A stretch of 10,302 nucleotides of DNA from a virus. Lineage: Duplodnaviria; Heunggongvirae; Uroviricota; Caudoviricetes. Positions 1-10,302 of this stretch are shown here, one piece after another. Every line of letters starts with the position of its first letter. Positions within the stretch are counted from its first letter, which is position 1. Location of the stretch: the IMG/VR virus record IMGVR_UViG_2718217859_000003; one strand, 5' to 3'. Below the pieces are notes generated by a model. That model was not told the DNA's origin and ran no database searches. It worked only from the letters and a program-made list of their open reading frames with translations. Made by a program: the position numbers and the translations under genes.

Positions 1-372
1 TTACTTCCTGCGTTTATCCCGCTTTGTATGTCCGTGCTGAATGCCCCGCAGTGGATCTTCTTTTTTCAGGTCGATCCCCATGTCCGTTAGTGTTTTTGTG
101 GCGGCGGTTCTTATGGCACAAATCAGGTCTCTTTCCGGTTCCCGGGTTATGGTTGCCTTCCGGATACATGCCGTTCGTCGTTCCGTTACATACTGACGCG
201 CTTCATCACTTGCCGCCTGTTTCAGTAACTCACCCCAGCGATTAGCCGCCCGTCGCCATAAACCTTTCGCTTCCAGTTCTTCCGCTTTGTCATCATGCAC
301 CATAAGCATAATCCCATTGATACCTGTTAAATCTGAATGGTTGGTTTCCGTTCTTTTGATAATTTCCCTCAT
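1..372 (-). CDS. PerC-family transcriptional activator-like protein (start codon ambiguous: ATG at 372, 309 or 303)
   Basis: Complete ORF with stop at 1-3. The motif EELEAKGLWRRAANRW resembles the conserved core I recall for PerC/Pch-type activators. No clear SD upstream of the ATG at 372, so the true start may be an internal Met. Confidence 0.5.
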   Translation of the reverse strand: MREIIKRTETNHSDLTGINGIMLMVHDDKAEELEAKGLWRRAANRWGELLKQAASDEARQYVTERRTACIRKATITREPERDLICAIRTAATKTLTDMGIDLKKEDPLRGIQHGHTKRDKRRK

Positions 373-720: not shown

Positions 721-817
721 CAGAATGTAAATTTACATTCTGCCAGCCACCAGCTACAGAACGCAAATTTGCACTTTGCTGAAATATTAACGGGTTAGGC
801 CAGAGTGCAAATTTGCA
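721..817. promoter_or_regulatory. Triad of related AAATTT-centred palindromes between convergent genes
   Basis: CAGAATGTAAATTTACATTCTG at 721-742 is a 22-bp perfect palindrome; GCAAATTTGC at 763-772; TGCAAATTTGCA at 806-817. Sites 2 and 3 with their flanks (763-775 and 804-816) are also inverted copies of each other. Confidence 0.5.
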
Positions 818-838
818 TTATGCTTTAACTTCAGCAAG

Positions 839-1120
839 TTACCGCCGTAACCGCTCCGGCTTCTTCCACTGGTACGTTATTTTGGCTTTTTCCCTGTACG
901 TCTGTATCCGGCGACGGTAGGCCAGCATTTCAAGAACGCGGATCCGTATGTCGCGCATATCCGCATCATTAAGCTGGATACCATCACGGTGCATCACCTC
1001 AGCAACCACACGAACATAATTTTCTGCGGTCACGCTGTCCGGCTGCGTGGCCTGTTCGTCAGCCTGCTGGTTGATTCCGGCGACGCGGCGGATTAATCGC
1101 AGTAGTTCGGTTTCTGTCAT
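839..1120 (-). CDS. Hypothetical protein, 93 aa
   Basis: ATG at 1120 with a GGGGG SD-like run upstream on the minus strand. It sits immediately downstream of repeat copy A. No recognisable motif. Confidence 0.5.
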   Translation of the reverse strand: MTETELLRLIRRVAGINQQADEQATQPDSVTAENYVRVVAEVMHRDGIQLNDADMRDIRIRVLEMLAYRRRIQTYREKAKITYQWKKPERLRR

Positions 1121-1378: not shown

Positions 1379-3268
1379 TCATAGTGAATCGGTACCGCCT
1401 GATTTGACCATACCGCGATAATCCAGAGCGGCCACACCAGCATCAATACGGACTTTCCAGGCCACACCGTCAACGATGAAACCTTCCTGCTGTTCAAGGT
1501 AAGGCTCGTCATTGCCATCAAGATAAGCCACCTCGATTGTGTCCGTTCCCTGTGCGGAAAGCATGTACCATTGTTTTTCGCTGATATCATCAAGGCGGGG
1601 ATCGACGATAATATCCAGTAGTTTGTGATACGGGTTAAAGATCCCGCTGTTTTTATCTGCCCCGAAAGGTGCGGTTGAGTTAATCATCTGCAACGCGCGA
1701 TCTTCCAGTGCTGCCGGAACTAAAAGGAATTTAGGCGCAATATTCAGCACTTCGCCATTTTTGTCCTTCTGTGTGCGCATCAGGTGACGTGCTGCACTAA
1801 GTCCCGGTGTTGTCAGTCCTGCTTCAATCAGGTTGCTGTGTTTTTTGTCAAACAGCGCTATTCCATCAGAAAGTTTTACGTTGCCTGTAAGCACCAGATT
1901 AACCAGATTTCCCACCGTTCTTGATGCTGCACGGCCCATAGCCATTGGCACCGTTGATAACTGATCAAGGTCATCATTGATTATCGCCTGGCGGGTAATG
2001 CTGAAAATATTCCCGTAAGTAGCCAGCGCGATGGGTTCACCGCGATCGCTGGTGGTGATGTATTTATATTCTGCCCCTTCCGGCACTTTGTTTAACGTAG
2101 AGAAACCATTCAGACCAACGCGGCGGGCTTCACGAAAGTTTGAAAGGGAACCTTTTTTCGTCCACTGGCGGAATGTTTCGCCGCTGTGCTCCCAGCCTGC
2201 AAGCACTGATTTTTCAGCACCACCAGCAAGGATATCGGTAAAATCGCTGCTGCTGTGGTTGAATGCCGCGTTTACTATCTGCGAGCGTGTTCCGTAGCTG
2301 CCCGTGCTTATACCACGATGGGTTAATGATGCCTGTGCCATATCGAAAAGGCTCATCATGGCGTAAGGATTACCGCGTTCGGCCCGTTCGTGACCAAGAC
2401 GCGCATTAAGCCCCTGGCGCATTGCATCGCCGGTTATGTTGCCGTTATCCGTGTACGCGTAGTAAAGATTTGCGGGGGTGGTTTTATTTGTTGGCGTTGA
2501 TTCTTTACCCATAGCGAGTAAAAGGCGTTCGCGTGCATTCTCAACGCTACATTCTGAATCAGCAAGACAACTTATAGCCAGGTCGTTATATCTTCCGTTG
2601 AACGTGCCAAACAATTCACGGATGCCGTTAAGTCGTTCCTGTTCGCCACTGCCAGTTTTCTGGCTGATCATGCTTTTAATTTTTTCCGGCATATTTGAAA
2701 AATCTCCGATTCGTTTTGATTCAATTCGGGCCATTGCTGTAATCGCGGGTATAACCTCATCTGCGAAGCCGTTAGCCTTACACTCATTGCCATCCATCCA
2801 GGTTTCCGCCTCCATCATGGCGGTGATTTCCTGTTTGCTCCTGCCCGTTCTTCCGGCGTAGGTTTCAGCCATCGTGTCGCCCAGCTTGTCCATCAGGTCA
2901 GCAAAGCGGCGAACGTCGCCCGACACTCCGGCAGTAACACCACGGGGGGCATGTATCATCATCATTGCGTTTTCAGGCATAACGATGTGATCGCCACACA
3001 TGGCAATAAACGAGGCCATAGAAGCCGCCATGCCTTCAATGTGTACAATTTTCTTTGCCGGATGATTTTTCAGGGCGTTATAGATAGCCAGCCCTTCAAA
3101 GATGTCGCCACCAGGTGAATGGATGCGAAGATGGATTTCAGACGCATTACCACACGCGTTGATCTCGTCAGTAAGTGCCGATGCTTTTACACCGTACCCG
3201 CCGATCTCGTCATAAATGCGCACATAGACAACATCTGCCATAGCCTTAATGGAAAACCATGTTTTCAT
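1379..3268 (-). CDS. Prohead protease (ClpP-like serine protease) fused to an HK97-fold major capsid protein, single 629-aa polypeptide
   Basis: Strong SD (AGGAG, 8 nt upstream of the ATG at 3268). N-terminal third carries ClpP-type motifs: IHSPGGDIFEGLAIYNAL, GMAASMASF (Ser) and MMMIHAP (His). The C-terminal segment FSITRQAIINDDLDQLS resembles the HK97 gp5 stretch ASRQVMDDAPMLQS as I recall it. Confidence 0.8.
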   Translation of the reverse strand: MKTWFSIKAMADVVYVRIYDEIGGYGVKASALTDEINACGNASEIHLRIHSPGGDIFEGLAIYNALKNHPAKKIVHIEGMAASMASFIAMCGDHIVMPENAMMMIHAPRGVTAGVSGDVRRFADLMDKLGDTMAETYAGRTGRSKQEITAMMEAETWMDGNECKANGFADEVIPAITAMARIESKRIGDFSNMPEKIKSMISQKTGSGEQERLNGIRELFGTFNGRYNDLAISCLADSECSVENARERLLLAMGKESTPTNKTTPANLYYAYTDNGNITGDAMRQGLNARLGHERAERGNPYAMMSLFDMAQASLTHRGISTGSYGTRSQIVNAAFNHSSSDFTDILAGGAEKSVLAGWEHSGETFRQWTKKGSLSNFREARRVGLNGFSTLNKVPEGAEYKYITTSDRGEPIALATYGNIFSITRQAIINDDLDQLSTVPMAMGRAASRTVGNLVNLVLTGNVKLSDGIALFDKKHSNLIEAGLTTPGLSAARHLMRTQKDKNGEVLNIAPKFLLVPAALEDRALQMINSTAPFGADKNSGIFNPYHKLLDIIVDPRLDDISEKQWYMLSAQGTDTIEVAYLDGNDEPYLEQQEGFIVDGVAWKVRIDAGVAALDYRGMVKSGGTDSL

Positions 3269-3459
3269 AGCCAGGCTCCTAACGTTGCCCTGTACCAGTA
3301 TTCAACCGCGCTGCGTGTGATTTGTCCTTTCGTGGGTACCGGCATACCCGGGTGATTGTCTTTGATGAACTGCTGATAGCGTTCGATCTTCTCCATAGTT
3401 CCGGCGTCTATGTGTACCGTGGCACTTTTATCCGGCTTTCTGGTGTTGTTCTCTGGCAT
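3265..3459 (-). CDS. Hypothetical small protein (64 aa from ATG at 3459; 75 aa if ATG at 3492), translationally coupled to the protease-capsid gene
   Basis: GGAGG SD 8 nt upstream of the ATG at 3459. Its stop overlaps the capsid start as ATGA at 3265-3268. Confidence 0.5.
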   Translation of the reverse strand: MPENNTRKPDKSATVHIDAGTMEKIERYQQFIKDNHPGMPVPTKGQITRSAVEYWYRATLGAWL

Positions 3460-3541
3460 AAATCCGCCTCCGTTTTGATTAACGGGCATCATTATTGATC
3501 GATAAAAGTAATAGATAAATCATTTTCTACCTGAAAATTAG

Positions 3542-3654: not shown

Positions 3655-3691
3655 GCGCCTCCGGTAACAGCAATCGAGGGCGCTTTTTTTT
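3655..3691 (+). terminator. Rho-independent terminator-like hairpin on the plus strand
   Basis: GCGCCTCCG, an 11-nt loop, then CGAGGGCGC (one mismatch, one GU pair) followed by T8. No plus-strand gene lies upstream, so it may end a small RNA or act bidirectionally. Confidence 0.45.
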
Positions 3692-3697
3692 GCGCCT

Positions 3698-3914
3698 GTT
3701 TTTTTGTAAATGTTTTCGGGAACGCTCCAGTGATGAACAAAAAACAACCTGATTCGACACTAAAAATTTTTATTCCTCAATATATCAATAACTTATAGTG
3801 GTGGTGATGGTGCCATAAAAATCAAAAAATGCGCCTTTTTCCGCGCCCGCCCGCCCCGTGGACAGGCCCACCAAGCCAGGAGTACCTACAAAAAAGCCGG
3901 ATTGCTCCGGCTGT
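3698..3914. repeat. Direct repeat copy B (~220 bp, diverged) flanking the capsid module
   Basis: Same conserved blocks as copy A in the same order and orientation; identical 20-mer CCGCGCCCGCCCGCCCCGTG at 3841-3860. Confidence 0.8.
3890..3911 (-). terminator. Rho-independent terminator downstream of the 3931-4170 gene
   Basis: On the minus strand: GCCGGA-GCAA-TCCGGC followed by TTTTTT. It is positionally homologous to the hairpin in copy A but has a different stem sequence. Confidence 0.65.
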
Positions 3915-3930: not shown

Positions 3931-4170
3931 TTATTCTCCAGCGCTTTTAACGTTGATGGTTGTAACCTGTTCCGCTTCGGCAATCTCCCGCTCTGTCAGC
4001 GTGGCAAAGTTTGCCGCCGTCGTGGTCATGAATGCGCTTATCAGTTCAGGATGTGCTTTCGCGTATCCTTCTCCCGCGTTGCGGTCGATGATTTTTATCG
4101 CCACCCTCAGCCAGTGTTCTGTCAAATCAAGGGCGTGAGATTGTGGTTTTTTTGCGTGCTTCGTTGTCAC
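3931..4170 (-). CDS. Hypothetical protein, 79 aa, GTG start
   Basis: GTG start with GAGGT SD about 7 nt upstream; lies between the iteron cluster and terminator B. No recognisable motif. Confidence 0.5.
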   Translation of the reverse strand: MTTKHAKKPQSHALDLTEHWLRVAIKIIDRNAGEGYAKAHPELISAFMTTTAANFATLTEREIAEAEQVTTINVKSAGE

Positions 4171-4214: not shown

Positions 4215-4434
4215 CCTTCACCTGTTCACTTTTTGCGATTTTCCCTTTTTATTCATGATGTTAAGTGGTGAACAGTTTCACAAAAACTATTCACCAACTG
4301 TTCACCCTTAAAGCTCAATAAACAATCAAAAAGGTGAACAGTGAATAGTTTGGTGAACAGTTCATAAATAACTGCCCACCCTGTAATATACTGATATAAA
4401 AGACATTTATGACATGGTGAACAGTGGTGAACAG
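4215..4434. repeat. Iteron cluster: putative replication origin (P4 ori/crr-like) bound by the adjacent primase-helicase
   Basis: Six exact copies of the octamer TGTTCACC / GGTGAACA, as GGTGAACAG at 4267, 4333, 4352, 4416 and 4426 and inverted CTGTTCACC at 4298-4306. There is also an 8/9 copy at 4222-4229 and TTCACC half-sites. An AT-rich tract at 4361-4415 separates the tandem pair from the rest. Confidence 0.8.
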
Positions 4435-4447
4435 TTATTCCATAAGT

Positions 4448-6253
4448 TTAATTTTTGCTATCGTCATTAGTGACCGATACACATGATGGCATCCAGTCTT
4501 CTGATTCCTCCTTCAGTGTCACGTTTGAACGCAAACCGTGCTTCGTTTTCCGTTTCATATACTCCCTGCCATATTCCGCCATTGCCCCCGGAATATCTTT
4601 ACCGAAGCGCGTCAGTGTTACAGGCTTACCGAATCCGTGTGCCCTCATATATGCCAGATAGGCGTGATAAAGATACCTGCGCGGACTGAACGGAATAATT
4701 TCGGCATTACCCACTAACAGACCATCACACATTACCGACGACATGAGATAGCCGCAGAAGTCCACCAGCGAATCGCCCTCGCGTTTTATCACCAGAGCTT
4801 CTTCTGATTTCTGCTGCTCATACAGCAAGCGTTTAGCTTCGTCCTGGTCAGAAAAACGAGTAAGCAGGTGGCGAATCACAACCGCCAGCTCTCCTTCTAT
4901 TTTTTCTGCCAGCATGGAGTCGCGTTCGTTTTCCGGTACAACCTCCGAAAAATTGAATATCACCCGACGACGTGAGATCCCCCCGCTGCGGTCACTGAAT
5001 GACATGGCGTTATTGTTCACCGCCAGCACGACCGCCTGAATGCGTGTTGAGTAGGGGGCTTTATGCTTCGGGTCGATTGCCACCTTGTCACCGCCTGTAA
5101 TGGCCTTAATTCCTGCGCCATCACCAGCGTAGCGGGTCATATCCGGCATGATAATCAGCGAAAAGCCAACCACTAACGCGCGTTCCCTGGCATCTTCCAG
5201 CGCCTTCATGCTTGCCGATACCGTGTTGGCCTTACCCGCCAGCATGGTGCAAATCTCCGCCATTACGCTTTTACCGCTCCCACCCGGCCCCGTTACCTCA
5301 AGAAATAACTGCCAGTCGTATCGGTTCGCCAGCACCATGAATAACGCCGCCAGTACGCGATCCGCTTTACGGTCATTCTCTGCCACCGAACGGCGCAACC
5401 ATTTCCAGAAATTCGGCGCATGCGTTGCCAGCGTTTCCCCCTCTGCTGGCGGGCTGAACGGTAATTCACTGGCAATTAACAGCCAGTCGTTTTTGTCATG
5501 CTCCCGAAAATCGCCTGTCCGGGTATCAAAAACACCGTTACTGAATCCAATCAGGTTACGGGCGGTATTCCCCATTACGGGCAAACTTAACTTCATGGTA
5601 TCGACCGCCGATTTGATGGCGTTCTGCGAATAACTAATCTCCGCATCAATAAAAATCTGCGCCATAGCCCGCTGTAACTCTTTATCCTGTACCGGCTCCC
5701 ATACAACGCCGTTGTAGTGGTGAACGGTGTCAGAGTCCGCATTGATTGCCAGTTCACCGCCATAACGTGCCAGGAGAACTTCGCCGCGCTGGCTTGCTCC
5801 CATCTGGTTAAGAGCCAGTGGTGCGGCGTTGTCTTCTGTTTTTTTCTTAACAGGAAGCTGAATAACCAGACCATCAGAAAGATTCTGGCGCTCACGGGCC
5901 AGATATTCGCGCCAGTTTTCCACCTCCTGACCGTGCATTCCCTCAGGGTAATATCTCGCATCCCGTACACCTGCCGCCGCCAGCTTTTGCCCGATGGCAT
6001 TAATATTTGACGGCTTGATGTGGCCTGCCTTGTACAGCCGGACATAATAGCGACCATCGTCGATAATTTTCAGGTCTGCCAGTTCATCAAGCTGGCTGTC
6101 TCCCAGCCATACAGGCGGGACGTTATCGCCAGCAAGTCGCCCGTCCTGTTCCTGCCATTGTTTCGCGTGCGCCCAGGCATCACTACCCGCAAAAATAATG
6201 ACTTCGGTCATTTTGTCGTGCGGCTGTTTTTTTAAGTTTGGTGCCAGTTTCAT
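4448..6253 (-). CDS. Replicative primase-helicase, P4 alpha-like (phage/plasmid primase with P-loop NTPase and C-terminal DNA-binding region)
   Basis: 601-aa ORF with SD-like AGGGG upstream. Walker A motif VTGPGGSGKSV in the middle; the N-terminal region fits a primase domain. Its position directly upstream of the cognate iterons matches P4 alpha and PICI pri-rep genes. Confidence 0.85.
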   Translation of the reverse strand: MKLAPNLKKQPHDKMTEVIIFAGSDAWAHAKQWQEQDGRLAGDNVPPVWLGDSQLDELADLKIIDDGRYYVRLYKAGHIKPSNINAIGQKLAAAGVRDARYYPEGMHGQEVENWREYLARERQNLSDGLVIQLPVKKKTEDNAAPLALNQMGASQRGEVLLARYGGELAINADSDTVHHYNGVVWEPVQDKELQRAMAQIFIDAEISYSQNAIKSAVDTMKLSLPVMGNTARNLIGFSNGVFDTRTGDFREHDKNDWLLIASELPFSPPAEGETLATHAPNFWKWLRRSVAENDRKADRVLAALFMVLANRYDWQLFLEVTGPGGSGKSVMAEICTMLAGKANTVSASMKALEDARERALVVGFSLIIMPDMTRYAGDGAGIKAITGGDKVAIDPKHKAPYSTRIQAVVLAVNNNAMSFSDRSGGISRRRVIFNFSEVVPENERDSMLAEKIEGELAVVIRHLLTRFSDQDEAKRLLYEQQKSEEALVIKREGDSLVDFCGYLMSSVMCDGLLVGNAEIIPFSPRRYLYHAYLAYMRAHGFGKPVTLTRFGKDIPGAMAEYGREYMKRKTKHGLRSNVTLKEESEDWMPSCVSVTNDDSKN

Positions 6254-6813: not shown

Positions 6814-7242
6814 TTAAAACAGCTTCGTCACGAAATCAGCATAGTTAGCGGCAATATCAAGAATATTTAGCCCTGTATCTCTGTGCTCATCAGTGCAAAG
6901 AAAGAAAAAAGCCACCCGCATAATTTCAGATATTGACGAAAGCGCATCAGCCGCATCATCAGGAACGCCGGAAAATTCCTGTTTCAGGGCATTAAAACGA
7001 TCATCACGCATAACCCCCCCATTTTCACAATCAGCAATCAGGATGGCTTTAGCCTCATTCAGTGCCATATCAGCGGTAAGCTGTGCGTAGGCCAGCGAAT
7101 GGGGGATTATTGCCCCTGTATATTCCGGCTCTCTGGTAATGTGTTTTTCTGCGGTTGCTGCCGTGCATGAAATATCAATCAGCGCATCCATCAGCGTTTT
7201 GATGGCTTCGGCGGCTGCGTCCGGACGGGGGTTATTGCACAT
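6814..7242 (-). CDS. Hypothetical protein, 142 aa
   Basis: ATG at 7242 with a strong AGGAGG SD 6 nt upstream; overlaps the end of the upstream 68-aa ORF by 11 nt. Confidence 0.6.
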   Translation of the reverse strand: MCNNPRPDAAAEAIKTLMDALIDISCTAATAEKHITREPEYTGAIIPHSLAYAQLTADMALNEAKAILIADCENGGVMRDDRFNALKQEFSGVPDDAADALSSISEIMRVAFFFLCTDEHRDTGLNILDIAANYADFVTKLF

Positions 7243-7438
7243 GGCGCACCTCCTGACGAATACGGGCGGCGAATACCATCACGCAGCCAGCCGGGGATTG
7301 CTGGCGGGCTTCCTGTTCGCTGGTGGCCTCGATGGTAATCACGCGCGGTTGTGCCGTGCTCAGGGCGATAAAACGCCAGATGTATTTATTCAGGTTGTGC
7401 GAATCCCGCCCTTGCGGGTGTGTGGTATGATTTCTCAT
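7232..7438 (-). CDS. Hypothetical protein, 68 aa, first gene of the leftward replication operon
   Basis: This is the C-terminal part of the 367-aa track ORF, starting at its first plausible ATG (7438), which has a GAGG SD. The rest of that long ORF crosses the control region and is rejected. Confidence 0.45.
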   Translation of the reverse strand: MRNHTTHPQGRDSHNLNKYIWRFIALSTAQPRVITIEATSEQEARQQSPAGCVMVFAARIRQEVRHVQ

Positions 7439-7522
7439 AGCTGCCTCGATACTCTTTCTATCGTTGGTGGTTAGACGCCCTGCATGTGTGCCACCACTGC
7501 GGGGCGTTGCGTTTTTTGATGC

Positions 7523-8339: not shown

Positions 8340-8546
8340 TTACGCAGCCGTTCCGCGCGCTTCTTCCTCGCGCTCTTTCAGCCAGGCCAGCACTTCATCT
8401 TCATACCAGCCAACACGACGCAGACCGATTTTGAAGCCTTTCGGAAATTTTCCGGCGTTGATCATGTCCTGTAGCGAACTGTCTGCCTTGATGCGCAGAA
8501 TATTTTTTACTTCCTGACGGGTAAGAATTTTTCTGATTGTTTCCAC
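8340..8546 (-). CDS. alpA: AlpA-family phage transcriptional regulator / excisionase-like HTH protein
   Basis: 68 aa, GTG start with AGGT SD. The pattern FPKGFKIGLRRVGWYEDEVLAWL matches the AlpA core I recall. Small regulator near the integrase, as in P4-like elements and Gram-negative PICIs. Confidence 0.8.
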   Translation of the reverse strand: METIRKILTRQEVKNILRIKADSSLQDMINAGKFPKGFKIGLRRVGWYEDEVLAWLKEREEEARGTAA

Positions 8547-9060: not shown

Positions 9061-10302
9061 TTACACGGCACGGATACCCCTTTTACCACTGGCTATGGTC
9101 ACTCCGGTTGCTGCGGCCTCTACAAATTCCCCCCACCAGCGCATAAGCACCACGCGCTTTTCCAGGTAGTTACTTCGGTTATATGCTCGCCTTACCTCGT
9201 TCGTGTCCACGTGTGCGAGTGCGGCCTCGATTACGTCCGGCTCGAATCCTTCCTCGTTCGCTGCTGTGCTGAATATGGCGCGTAATCCATGAGACACCAG
9301 CACGCCAGCGAATCCCATTCGCCGCAATGCTGCGTTGGCGGTCTGGCTGTTCATAGGCTGCCGTGGGTCTTTCAGGCTAGGGAAAACGTGCTCGCGGTGG
9401 TGGCTGATTGGCTTCATGGCCTCCAGTACCGCCATAGCCTGACTACAAAGCGGGATAACGTGATCACGCCGCATCTTCATGCGTCCGGCGGGGATCGTCC
9501 ATTGTTGCGCGTCCATGTCGATTTCTTCCCAGCGTGCTGACGATGCTTCAACCGGACGGGTTACAGTCAGTAGCTGCCATTCAATCAGTAATCTGGTCTG
9601 CCGTTCTGTTGCTGATACGGATAAAGCCTGCATAAGCTCCGGCAACTGTTCGGGGCGGATTGTTGGCATATGTTTTTTTACAGGGGAGGGGAACGCCTTA
9701 CGCACATTCATAGCCGGATTGGCATCAATCAGCCCACTGTTGGCGGCGTAATCCATTACCTCATTAACGCGCTGTAAAACCCGCTTGAGTGTTTCCAGGT
9801 TGCCGCGCTCCTTGATGGGTGTAAGCACCTCAACGAACCTTCGGGCAGTGAGGGTATCTATTGGCGTGTTGCCGATGAACGGGAATACATATTTATCCAG
9901 CGAACGCCAGATGTCTTTAATCGTGTTGGGGGCCAGATTCTGGCTGATTTTCACCTGGTACCATGCCGCCGCCACATTTTCGAACGTGTTCCCTTGTCTT
10001 CGGGCCTCTGCCTCTCGTTTTTTCTTCTCATGGTCCTGCGGGTCAGTTCCGGCACTGATTAACGTCCTGTACTCGCTACGGCGTTTTCTGGCATCAGCCA
10101 GGGAAACATCTTCAAGAGATCCAAAACTCAGCAATATTCTTTTTTTGTCCGATGGTCGGTAGTAGGAAAATCGCCAGAGTTTTGATCCGGACGGTTTTAC
10201 CAGGAGAAAAAGCCCACCGCCGTCCTGTAGGGTGTACTCCTTTTGCGCTGGTCTGGCTGCTTTGATCTGCACTGTGGTTAATGGGGGTGTTTTTCTCGCC
10301 AT
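9061..10302 (-). CDS. int: Tyrosine site-specific integrase, P4-type (phage integrase family)
   Basis: 413 aa; the start codon sits exactly at the window edge. N-terminal arm-binding-like region (GGGLFLLVKPSGSKLWRFSYY), C-terminal catalytic signatures HGLRAIFST and a tyrosine in RRAYNRSNYLEKR. Confidence 0.93.
   Translation of the reverse strand: MARKTPPLTTVQIKAARPAQKEYTLQDGGGLFLLVKPSGSKLWRFSYYRPSDKKRILLSFGSLEDVSLADARKRRSEYRTLISAGTDPQDHEKKKREAEARRQGNTFENVAAAWYQVKISQNLAPNTIKDIWRSLDKYVFPFIGNTPIDTLTARRFVEVLTPIKERGNLETLKRVLQRVNEVMDYAANSGLIDANPAMNVRKAFPSPVKKHMPTIRPEQLPELMQALSVSATERQTRLLIEWQLLTVTRPVEASSARWEEIDMDAQQWTIPAGRMKMRRDHVIPLCSQAMAVLEAMKPISHHREHVFPSLKDPRQPMNSQTANAALRRMGFAGVLVSHGLRAIFSTAANEEGFEPDVIEAALAHVDTNEVRRAYNRSNYLEKRVVLMRWWGEFVEAAATGVTIASGKRGIRAV

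Follow-up and report, generated by a model that had tools for sequence, protein, structure and literature searches.

A single tripartite capsid gene between helper-type cos sites in an Escherichia coli phage-inducible chromosomal island

What is a lone gene for a protease-capsid polyprotein doing in a mobile element that carries no other head gene? The question is raised by a stretch of 10,302 nucleotides (nt), filed in IMG/VR as a virus of the class Caudoviricetes (record IMGVR_UViG_2718217859_000003) and hereafter called the window, in which an open reading frame (ORF) of 629 amino acids (aa) follows a coupled ORF of 64 aa. The window matches exactly a segment of the E. coli 08-00022 chromosome (NZ_CP013662.1, 2699994-2710295, reverse strand), and we read this locus (L001) together with 15 kb of flanking sequence on each side. 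The locus holds a phage-inducible chromosomal island (PICI), and comparison with phages and other satellites shows the tripartite gene to be its version of the usual PICI capsid morphogenesis component, in a form that matches the head type of the helper.

Two att repeats (L001 14520-14547 and 25366-25392) bound the island, which measures about 10.87 kb between them, falls in the range of about 8-15 kb known for PICIs and reaches about 480 bp beyond the window on the left and about 90 bp on the right. A first, sequence-only reading of the window had claimed that no portal, terminase or head-tail gene accompanies the fusion, and had pointed to the flanks as the place where a complete head module could lie. 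None of these genes was found in the whole island (ORFs, Pfam, NCBIfam, PHROG and flanks), and chromosomal genes stand on both sides, with tRNA-Pro and then yejM beyond the integrase gene, and a yejO pseudogene and then narP beyond the PerC gene. Lysis, tail and other structural genes were likewise absent from the 10.87-kb island in the ORF list, Pfam, PHROG and the annotated flanks. The att repeats fit the core TTTGTAGTTATACGTTTG(G/T)... published for PICIs at yejM-luxR (EcCIATCC25922, ED1a.1 and 11128), and sequence comparison revealed backbone genes common to the island and these PICIs. The gene set comprises an integrase, AlpA, a D5/P4 primase, a DUF4222 protein (Pfam) and iterons 3′ of the primase gene. 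The element is a complete Gram-negative PICI of the EcCI type, and its capsid cassette consists of the following features.

1379..3268, minus strand: tripartite capsid gene, 629 aa, with protease, scaffold-like linker and major capsid protein in one ORF (ORF, NCBIfam and Pfam)
2714..3268, minus strand: ClpP-like prohead protease domain, residues 1-185 (Pfam CLP_protease at residues 41-173, E 3e-33)
2282..2713, minus strand: linker or scaffold-like segment, residues 186-329 (alignment; scaffold role proposed from the Gifsy-2 tripartite gene)
1382..2281, minus strand: major capsid protein domain, residues 330-629 (Pfam Phage_capsid_4)
3265..3459, minus strand: 64-aa ORF coupled to the capsid gene (ATGA overlap, GGAGG before the start; PHROG 4934)
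3660..3912, minus strand: cos-like site 1, cosN-like core at 3836-3859 (direct repeat D1; aligns with the cos region of phage Stx2_12E129_yecE)
1130..1373, minus strand: cos-like site 2, cosN-like core at 1297-1320 (identity to Shiga toxin (Stx) phage sequence upstream of terS)

The 629-aa protein had been described as a ClpP-like protease joined to an HK97-like capsid protein, and the protease and capsid assignments were borne out by matches to CLP_protease, Phage_capsid_4 and NCBIfam NF045540 (‘ClpP-like prohead protease/major capsid protein fusion protein’), the last covering the whole model at 889.8 bits against a cut-off of 475. PHROG 133 also matched, at 932 bits. The head maturation protease model NF045542 covers residues 16-172, and the catalytic residues Ser83 (GMAASMAS) and His106 (MMIHAP) are invariant in the satellite and phage copies aligned. 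A single-sequence search of the Protein Data Bank (PDB) with the 629-aa protein returned ClpP only, in an alignment that takes in both catalytic motifs. Phage_capsid_4 matched residues 330-623 over nearly its whole model (E 8e-55), the Pfam family Mu-like_gpT matched as well, and a profile made from diverse representatives of the C-terminal domain found capsid proteins of solved structure, 8rkc/8rkx at E 2.5e-13 and 9jod at E 8.5e-13. The coat domain has 10,805 homologous clusters at 50% identity, and most of the best of these are fusions of 620-850 aa. An AlphaFold2 (AF2) model of the full protein from a 12-sequence alignment reached a mean predicted local distance difference test (pLDDT) score of 44, with 70-88 in the protease domain, a mostly helical linker of low confidence and values below 50 in the coat domain. 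Since the alignment was shallow, the coat-domain model is poor and unusable, and the predicted HK97-type fold of the C-terminal domain therefore rests on the sequence evidence, which is strong.

The 64-aa ORF and the fusion gene are bracketed by two direct copies of a helper-type cos site. A 98-nt direct repeat (1276-1373 and 3815-3912) is 96-98% identical to the non-coding DNA that separates terS from the lysis genes in Stx phages, and also matches the genome ends of mEp460. The alignment with phage sequence runs about 170 nt past the cosN-like core (ACGGGGCGGGCGGGCGCGG) into conserved cosB-like boxes on the terS side, and the core itself is the same in both satellite copies and in phage Stx2_12E129_yecE. 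Each copy has a hairpin and a T-run ahead of it: a terminator hairpin (3895-3912) precedes site 1, and site 2, with its hairpin and T-run, begins 6 nt past the stop of the capsid gene. The order of cos, small ORF, fusion and cos, with the sites about 2.54 kb apart, recurs in strain 042, in a PICI embedded in a prophage of strain 8E and in a second satellite lineage with a 637-aa fusion. No TerS or Rpp homologue was detected in the window (tblastn with three PICI and phage proteins; Pfam, NCBIfam), and, judging from their phage-like sequence, the satellite cos sites would be recognised directly by the helper terminase.

In the 637-aa lineage, the small ORF and the fusion are likewise surrounded by direct cos-like repeats about 2.53 kb apart (9390-9483 and 11924-12017 in locus L006; 2705-2759 and 5242-5296 in locus L012), of which the core differs (CACGGGGCGGGAGCG...).

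The claim that a translationally coupled 64-aa ORF is the only other ORF of the module also held. The upstream ORF (3265-3492) would encode 75 aa from its first ATG and encodes 64 aa from an internal ATG at 3459, which has GGAGG 7 nt on its 5′ side; this shorter form is the one that PGAP gives in relatives. Its stop overlaps the start of the fusion as ATGA, with AGGAG 8 nt 5′ of the fusion start, an arrangement by which we judge the ORF to be translationally coupled to the fusion gene. The small protein matched no Pfam family, either as a single sequence or as an alignment, its profile found nothing significant in the PDB, and a homologue search returned 6 clusters only. Its AF2 model (pLDDT 62) shows an extended N-terminus and two helices, for which Foldseek returned no match below E = 3. 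We also considered a ribbon-helix-helix protein, an identity that sequence, profile and fold searches did not support.

PICIs of three capsid types have, ahead of the capsid gene, a small ORF that shares the pattern K-G-x-S/T-V-x-I/L-D ... P ... G-x-I/L-x-R. Weak relatives of the 64-aa ORF occur in CFT073 and IHE3034 (68 aa each) and in L006 (69 aa), and the counterpart 64-aa ORF of EcCI11128 stands instead upstream of a terS-like gene. From its position and pattern, the small upstream ORF looks like a conserved leader gene of the late zone.

The origin of this one-gene shell design became apparent from phages of the helper type. Over its full length, the 629-aa protein is about 51% identical to the ‘protease/scaffold’ gene product of VT1-Sakai, several Stx2 phages, CP-1639, mEp460 and cdtI, among others. 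In Stx2_12E129, VT1-Sakai, mEp460 and Gifsy-2-like phages, protease, scaffold and coat are one gene next to the portal gene, in the order terS, terL, gpW-like gene, portal, fusion, decoration-type gene and tail genes, with no other coat gene. The phrase ‘tripartite capsid gene of Gifsy-2’ reportedly goes back to Effantin and colleagues in 2010. In Gifsy-2-like phages, as in the satellite, a single ORF runs from a ClpP-like protease through a central segment to a C-terminal coat domain; the phage fusion lies inside a head module, whereas that of the satellite stands alone after the 64-aa ORF. PMC8538268 and PMC12315714 cite the work of Effantin and colleagues on the Gifsy-2 tripartite capsid gene. 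From gene content and order, the single polyprotein is the normal shell gene of this phage head type and no satellite invention. Hence, of the proposal that the capsid module was reduced to a single polyprotein, the single gene stands and the reduction does not, as helper-type phages encode the same single tripartite gene.

The homologous capsid fusion of VT1-Sakai, the Stx1 prophage of O157 Sakai (AP000400.1, 23251-26522), is broken by IS629, which leaves this prophage unable to produce a coat protein of its own.

A lone capsid gene is no novelty among satellites either. The sequence-only reading had started from the premise that satellites carry a multi-gene head module or none, which is contradicted by PMC10111431: of 29 reference Gram-negative PICIs, 21 are reported there to have a major capsid gene, more than have any other late gene. 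Its suggestion of an unusual satellite design also gave way, since SatelliteFinder counts ‘capsid morphogenesis’ among five PICI core components (PMC10085698). PMC10111431 (Mageeney et al. 2023) groups genes derived from helpers into a ‘late zone’, with the capsid gene the most frequent among them, and its text as read names no protease-capsid fusion type. We inspected six reference PICIs and found a lambda-E-like gene with a decoration gene in three (CFT073, IHE3034, ATCC25922), a 307-aa major capsid protein (MCP) in two (11128, 11368.1), no capsid gene in one (RM13514) and the tripartite gene in none, so that the cassette represents a further variety of a known component. ATCC25922, 11128 and 11368.1 share the att site of the window island.

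Compared with the EcCI PICIs described by Fillol-Salom et al. 2018 (PMC6092414), the island has the att site of EcCIATCC25922 and EcCI11128 and the same backbone of integrase, AlpA, Icd-like gene, DUF4222 gene, primase, origin, 79-aa gene, late zone, 93-aa gene and PerC gene, as well as unidirectional genes, a length of about 11 kb, a small coupled ORF before a lone capsid homologue, and two cos sites. It differs from them in its tripartite capsid type and in having no Rpp or TerS-like gene. Its cos sites are direct repeats around the capsid cassette, near-identical to the helper phage over cosN and the downstream region, whereas the two cosN copies of EcCICFT073 are inverted and flank rppA. 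SaPIbov5, with its protein Ccm, resembles the island in being packaged by helper cos and in carrying a homologue of the helper major capsid protein. Ccm and PmCI172 are linked to small capsids (PMC6092414 and the preprint on capsid-forming PICIs, cf-PICIs); unlike the fusion of the island, Ccm has no protease domain. More precisely, PMC6092414 reports that PmCI172 forms small capsids and has a capsid homologue, and cites Ccm as a homologue that makes small capsids. Like the island, cf-PICIs of the EcCIEDL933 type combine a PICI backbone with coat and protease functions of their own, and fused capsid-protease genes occur in Firmicutes cf-PICIs (PMC10085698); cf-PICIs add a portal, head-tail connectors, HNH, TerS and TerL, all of which the island lacks. 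With P4-like satellites, the island shares only the integrase, the AlpA-like regulator and the P4-family primase domain, and no Pfam, NCBIfam or PHROG match to Sid, Psu or Delta was found among the ORFs scanned.

The cassette is widespread. Of 5,426 complete E. coli genomes, 143 contain the DNA of the 64-aa ORF and the fusion intact, with identity above 97%; they include O157:H7, O121:H19, O145:H28, O111:H8 and strain 042, where the cassette lies in an island of about 9 kb between cspD and clpS that has no portal or terminase gene. The 637-aa fusion of the second lineage is 62-64% identical to the 629-aa protein, has its best-represented cluster (P0084) on 365 contigs, and occurs in the same island type, where a small terminase-type gene (DUF1441 or Nu1-like) comes after it. 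Metagenome contigs yielded more distant relatives, which likewise lack a portal gene and have a small ORF upstream; one relative (L019) sits in a normal phage head module. Copies were further found in PICIs inserted in the prophage gene terL of a commensal strain (SCU-171; L010 8994-11071), O111:H8 strain 8E (L013 6548-8628) and O157:H7 strain Z1835 (L014 11001-12890). These embedded PICIs have the same 64-aa ORF and a 629/628-aa fusion at 91-99% identity to the window cassette and differ from the window island, which is chromosomal on the tRNA-Pro side of yejM, in their insertion site. The coat gene of the surrounding prophage is a homologous fusion of 659-680 aa adjoining the portal gene, and satellite and co-resident prophage fusions share only 54% identity.

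A metagenomic locus (L017 467-8015) carries an integrase, a 70-aa ORF, a 647-aa fusion, a TMP_2 protein and IncFII RepA; its lone tripartite gene is 59% identical in the coat domain, and the element looks plasmid-like.

We next consider the selection under which the fusion gene has evolved. The ratio of nonsynonymous to synonymous substitution rates (dN/dS) is 0.025 between the window and strain 042 copies, 0.093 between the window and SCU-171 copies, and 0.18 between the 629-aa and 637-aa lineages, which are saturated at synonymous sites. Taken singly, protease, linker and coat show about the constraint seen when two phages are compared (dN/dS 0.18). Values of 0.025-0.18 over all domains rule out a decaying relic and show, as far as substitution patterns can tell, a functional gene under purifying selection. 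The satellite copies nevertheless differ from those of phages: both satellite lineages lack about 30-35 aa of Pro/Ala/Thr-rich linker found in all three phage copies aligned (about 35 aa in the phage fusions), and carry fixed changes near the start of the coat domain. At 64 positions, the satellites agree and the phages differ. Their density peaks at residues 181-210 and 271-360, in the vicinity of the linker and the coat-domain start, where the enrichment (9 per 30-residue interval against about 3 expected) is suggestive only. Because the two lineages share the linker deletion, the fixed differences and the order of cos, small ORF, fusion and cos, we take the fusion to be an old copy from the helper phage type that has long resided in satellites.

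What, then, would the polyprotein do? The reading that we favour, tentatively and at somewhat less than an even chance, is that a helper-induced polyprotein assembles on helper portals and is filled through cos packaging by the helper terminase, in favour of the satellite. A helper of the mEp460 or Stx type would induce the island, and the late zone would be expressed. The polyprotein would assemble on helper portals, alone or mixed with helper coat, and its own protease would remove the protease-scaffold part. The helper terminase would then recognise the satellite cos sites and fill the shells, and the helper would supply head completion proteins and tails. The linker deletion and the changes in the N-terminal arm probably alter shell size or segregation from helper coat in a way that favours the satellite.

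Several points weigh against this reading. For this cassette, assembly is a prediction from sequence, and the coat-domain model carries no confidence (pLDDT below 50). The satellite scaffold and coat are about 50-57% identical to those of the helper, and their compatibility with its portal is assumed. The length of the island gives no verdict, since a helper-sized head could take four copies just as a small head could take one: helper genomes measure 44.5-46.3 kb, to which four units (43.5 kb, or 46.0 kb with the cassette added) come close, and one unit of 10.9 kb, or 13.4 kb with the cassette, would suit a small head. The host genome NZ_CP013662.1 contains no copy of this cos type beyond the island's own two; no resident helper is therefore evident, and a helper would come from outside or use a different cos. 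The experimental precedent is also negative. EcCICFT073 carries the lambda-E-type capsid homologue c1499 and a decoration homologue; deletion of c1499 left interference with lambda in place, its replacement by a marker still allowed transfer, and the packaged DNA was all phage-sized (PMC6092414). When the post-origin genes were over-expressed singly, rppA alone inhibited lambda (PMC6739421), so that the capsid gene was dispensable for transfer and interference and its over-expression harmless to lambda. By analogy, these negatives warn that the capsid gene of the present island may be dispensable for transfer.

The polyprotein might alternatively poison the helper without aiding transfer, by co-assembling with parts of the helper procapsid or by having its protease mis-process them, which we consider unlikely. 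PICIs in general interfere with their helpers (PMC6092414, PMC6739421), the satellite copy is diverged (about 51% identity) yet a full-length homologue of the helper coat, and the fixed differences in the linker and the N-terminal arm could make mixed assemblies defective. However, all three domains and the catalytic residues are conserved as in phages, beyond the need of a simple poison subunit, and deletion or over-expression of the EcCICFT073 capsid gene was without effect on lambda, on which RppA alone acted. A poison would also harm the packaging of the satellite itself, unless separate shells form.

We give a similarly low chance to some other selected role, whether as a spare coat for the helper, in matching the helper range or against capsid-sensing host defences, or to the fusion being conserved cargo from helpers. 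Such roles find some precedent in PMC10111431, which proposes late genes as helper-captured and perhaps back-up copies and notes that a capsid knock-out is tolerated, and in the abstract of PMC11773190, where one PICI is reported to aid its helper. They would also suit the finding that one backbone and att site carry different cassettes (lambda E plus a D-like gene, the 307-aa MCP or the tripartite gene). The embedded copies, however, interrupt terL and not the coat gene, so that the fusion is no back-up of a disrupted gene, and the 51-54% identity to the co-resident prophage gene, together with the shared satellite changes, argues against recent capture.

That the fusion is the leftover of a full head module in a decaying prophage, with no current function, is very improbable. 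Such islands were once annotated as defective prophages (PMC6092414), and the island contains an Icd-like pseudogene. Against this stand the precise att boundaries, the full PICI gene set, a cassette intact in 143 complete genomes at dN/dS values of 0.025-0.18, and an order of cos, small ORF, fusion and cos common to two lineages between which synonymous sites are saturated; we rejected the remnant on the selection data, the att boundaries and the gene set. A cf-PICI building complete heads of its own, for which the encoded coat, scaffold and protease functions might speak, was rejected on gene content and has a negligible chance, since portal, head-tail adaptor/connector, TerL, TerS and HNH, all core components of cf-PICIs, are absent from the 10.87-kb island.

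Apart from the capsid cassette, the following features were assigned in the island.

9061..10302, minus strand: tyrosine integrase, next to tRNA-Pro (Pfam and genome context)
8340..8546, minus strand: AlpA-family regulator (Pfam Phage_AlpA)
7232-7483: Icd-like cell division inhibitor pseudogene (RefSeq annotation)
4448..6253, minus strand: primase/helicase with D5_N, DUF5906 and Pox_D5, a P4-family primase (Pfam, NCBIfam, PHROG)
4254..4449: iteron-like GGTGAACAGT repeats, presumed replication origin just 3′ of the primase gene (repeat search)
3931..4170, minus strand: 79-aa conserved PICI gene, downstream of the origin (PHROG 1231)
839..1120, minus strand: 93-aa conserved PICI gene, after cos site 2 (PHROG 1561)
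1-372, minus strand: PerC-family transcriptional regulator at the far end of the island (Pfam PerC, E 8e-23)

Nearly all genes lie on the minus strand, the integrase, alpA, primase, capsid and 93-aa genes included. Their order is integrase, AlpA, Icd-like pseudogene, small ORFs including that of the DUF4222 protein, primase and iterons, followed by the 79-aa gene, the 64-aa ORF, the 629-aa ORF, the 93-aa gene and the PerC-family regulator. The iteron region includes the direct repeat families D2, D3, D5, D8 and D13 and the families I7, I18 and I23, and the PICI origin is described as lying 3′ of the replication gene (PMC6092414). The 79-aa gene is 78-85% identical to genes of EcCI11128 and EcCIIHE3034. 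The 93-aa gene is 81% identical to the last gene of EcCIIHE3034 and also stands 3′ of the capsid cassette in loci L002, L006, L012 and L013. PerC alleles have been named as PICI cargo (PMC6092414). An Rfam search of the window gave no family at gathering score, and a tRNA scan found none within it, tRNA-Pro lying just outside. A promoter scan found fewer sites than in shuffled sequence, and we therefore propose no late promoter.

The Icd-like gene, a pseudogene in the window island, is intact in related PICIs. The PerC regulator may bear on regulation of the locus of enterocyte effacement, given the Shiga-toxin-type background. A palindrome in three copies (TGCAAATTTGCA, GTGCAAATTTGCG, TGTAAATTTACA) spaced about 44 nt apart (window 730-841), flanked by the 93-aa gene and a plus-strand 99-aa ORF (416-715, PGAP), resembles operator sites.

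A literature search returned no study of this cassette nor of PICIs mobilised by Stx phages, and the novelty claimed here is modest: a cos-bracketed two-gene cassette without Rpp, a satellite-specific linker deletion and a clear helper assignment. Lone capsid homologues occur in 21 of 29 reference PICIs, yet the sole one tested, c1499 of EcCICFT073, showed no phenotype. The tripartite version offers a clean test case for PICI capsid gene function, because one strongly conserved gene holds protease, scaffold and coat, differs from that of the helper in the parts expected to govern assembly, and sits between helper-type cos sites in islands whose helpers are identifiable as mEp460- or Stx-like phages. 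Stx-type prophages (O157, O111, O121, O145) harbour many of the copies, so that any effect on head assembly could bear on Stx phage production. It is possible, though rather unlikely, that one tripartite gene is enough for satellite-specific shells, possibly smaller owing to the short linker, on stolen helper portals, with the cos pair setting the packaged length to one unit or one unit plus the 2.5-kb cassette. If this is true, the island would stand midway from classical PICIs to cf-PICIs as a minimal intermediate form, and the capsid genes of PICIs would gain a function.

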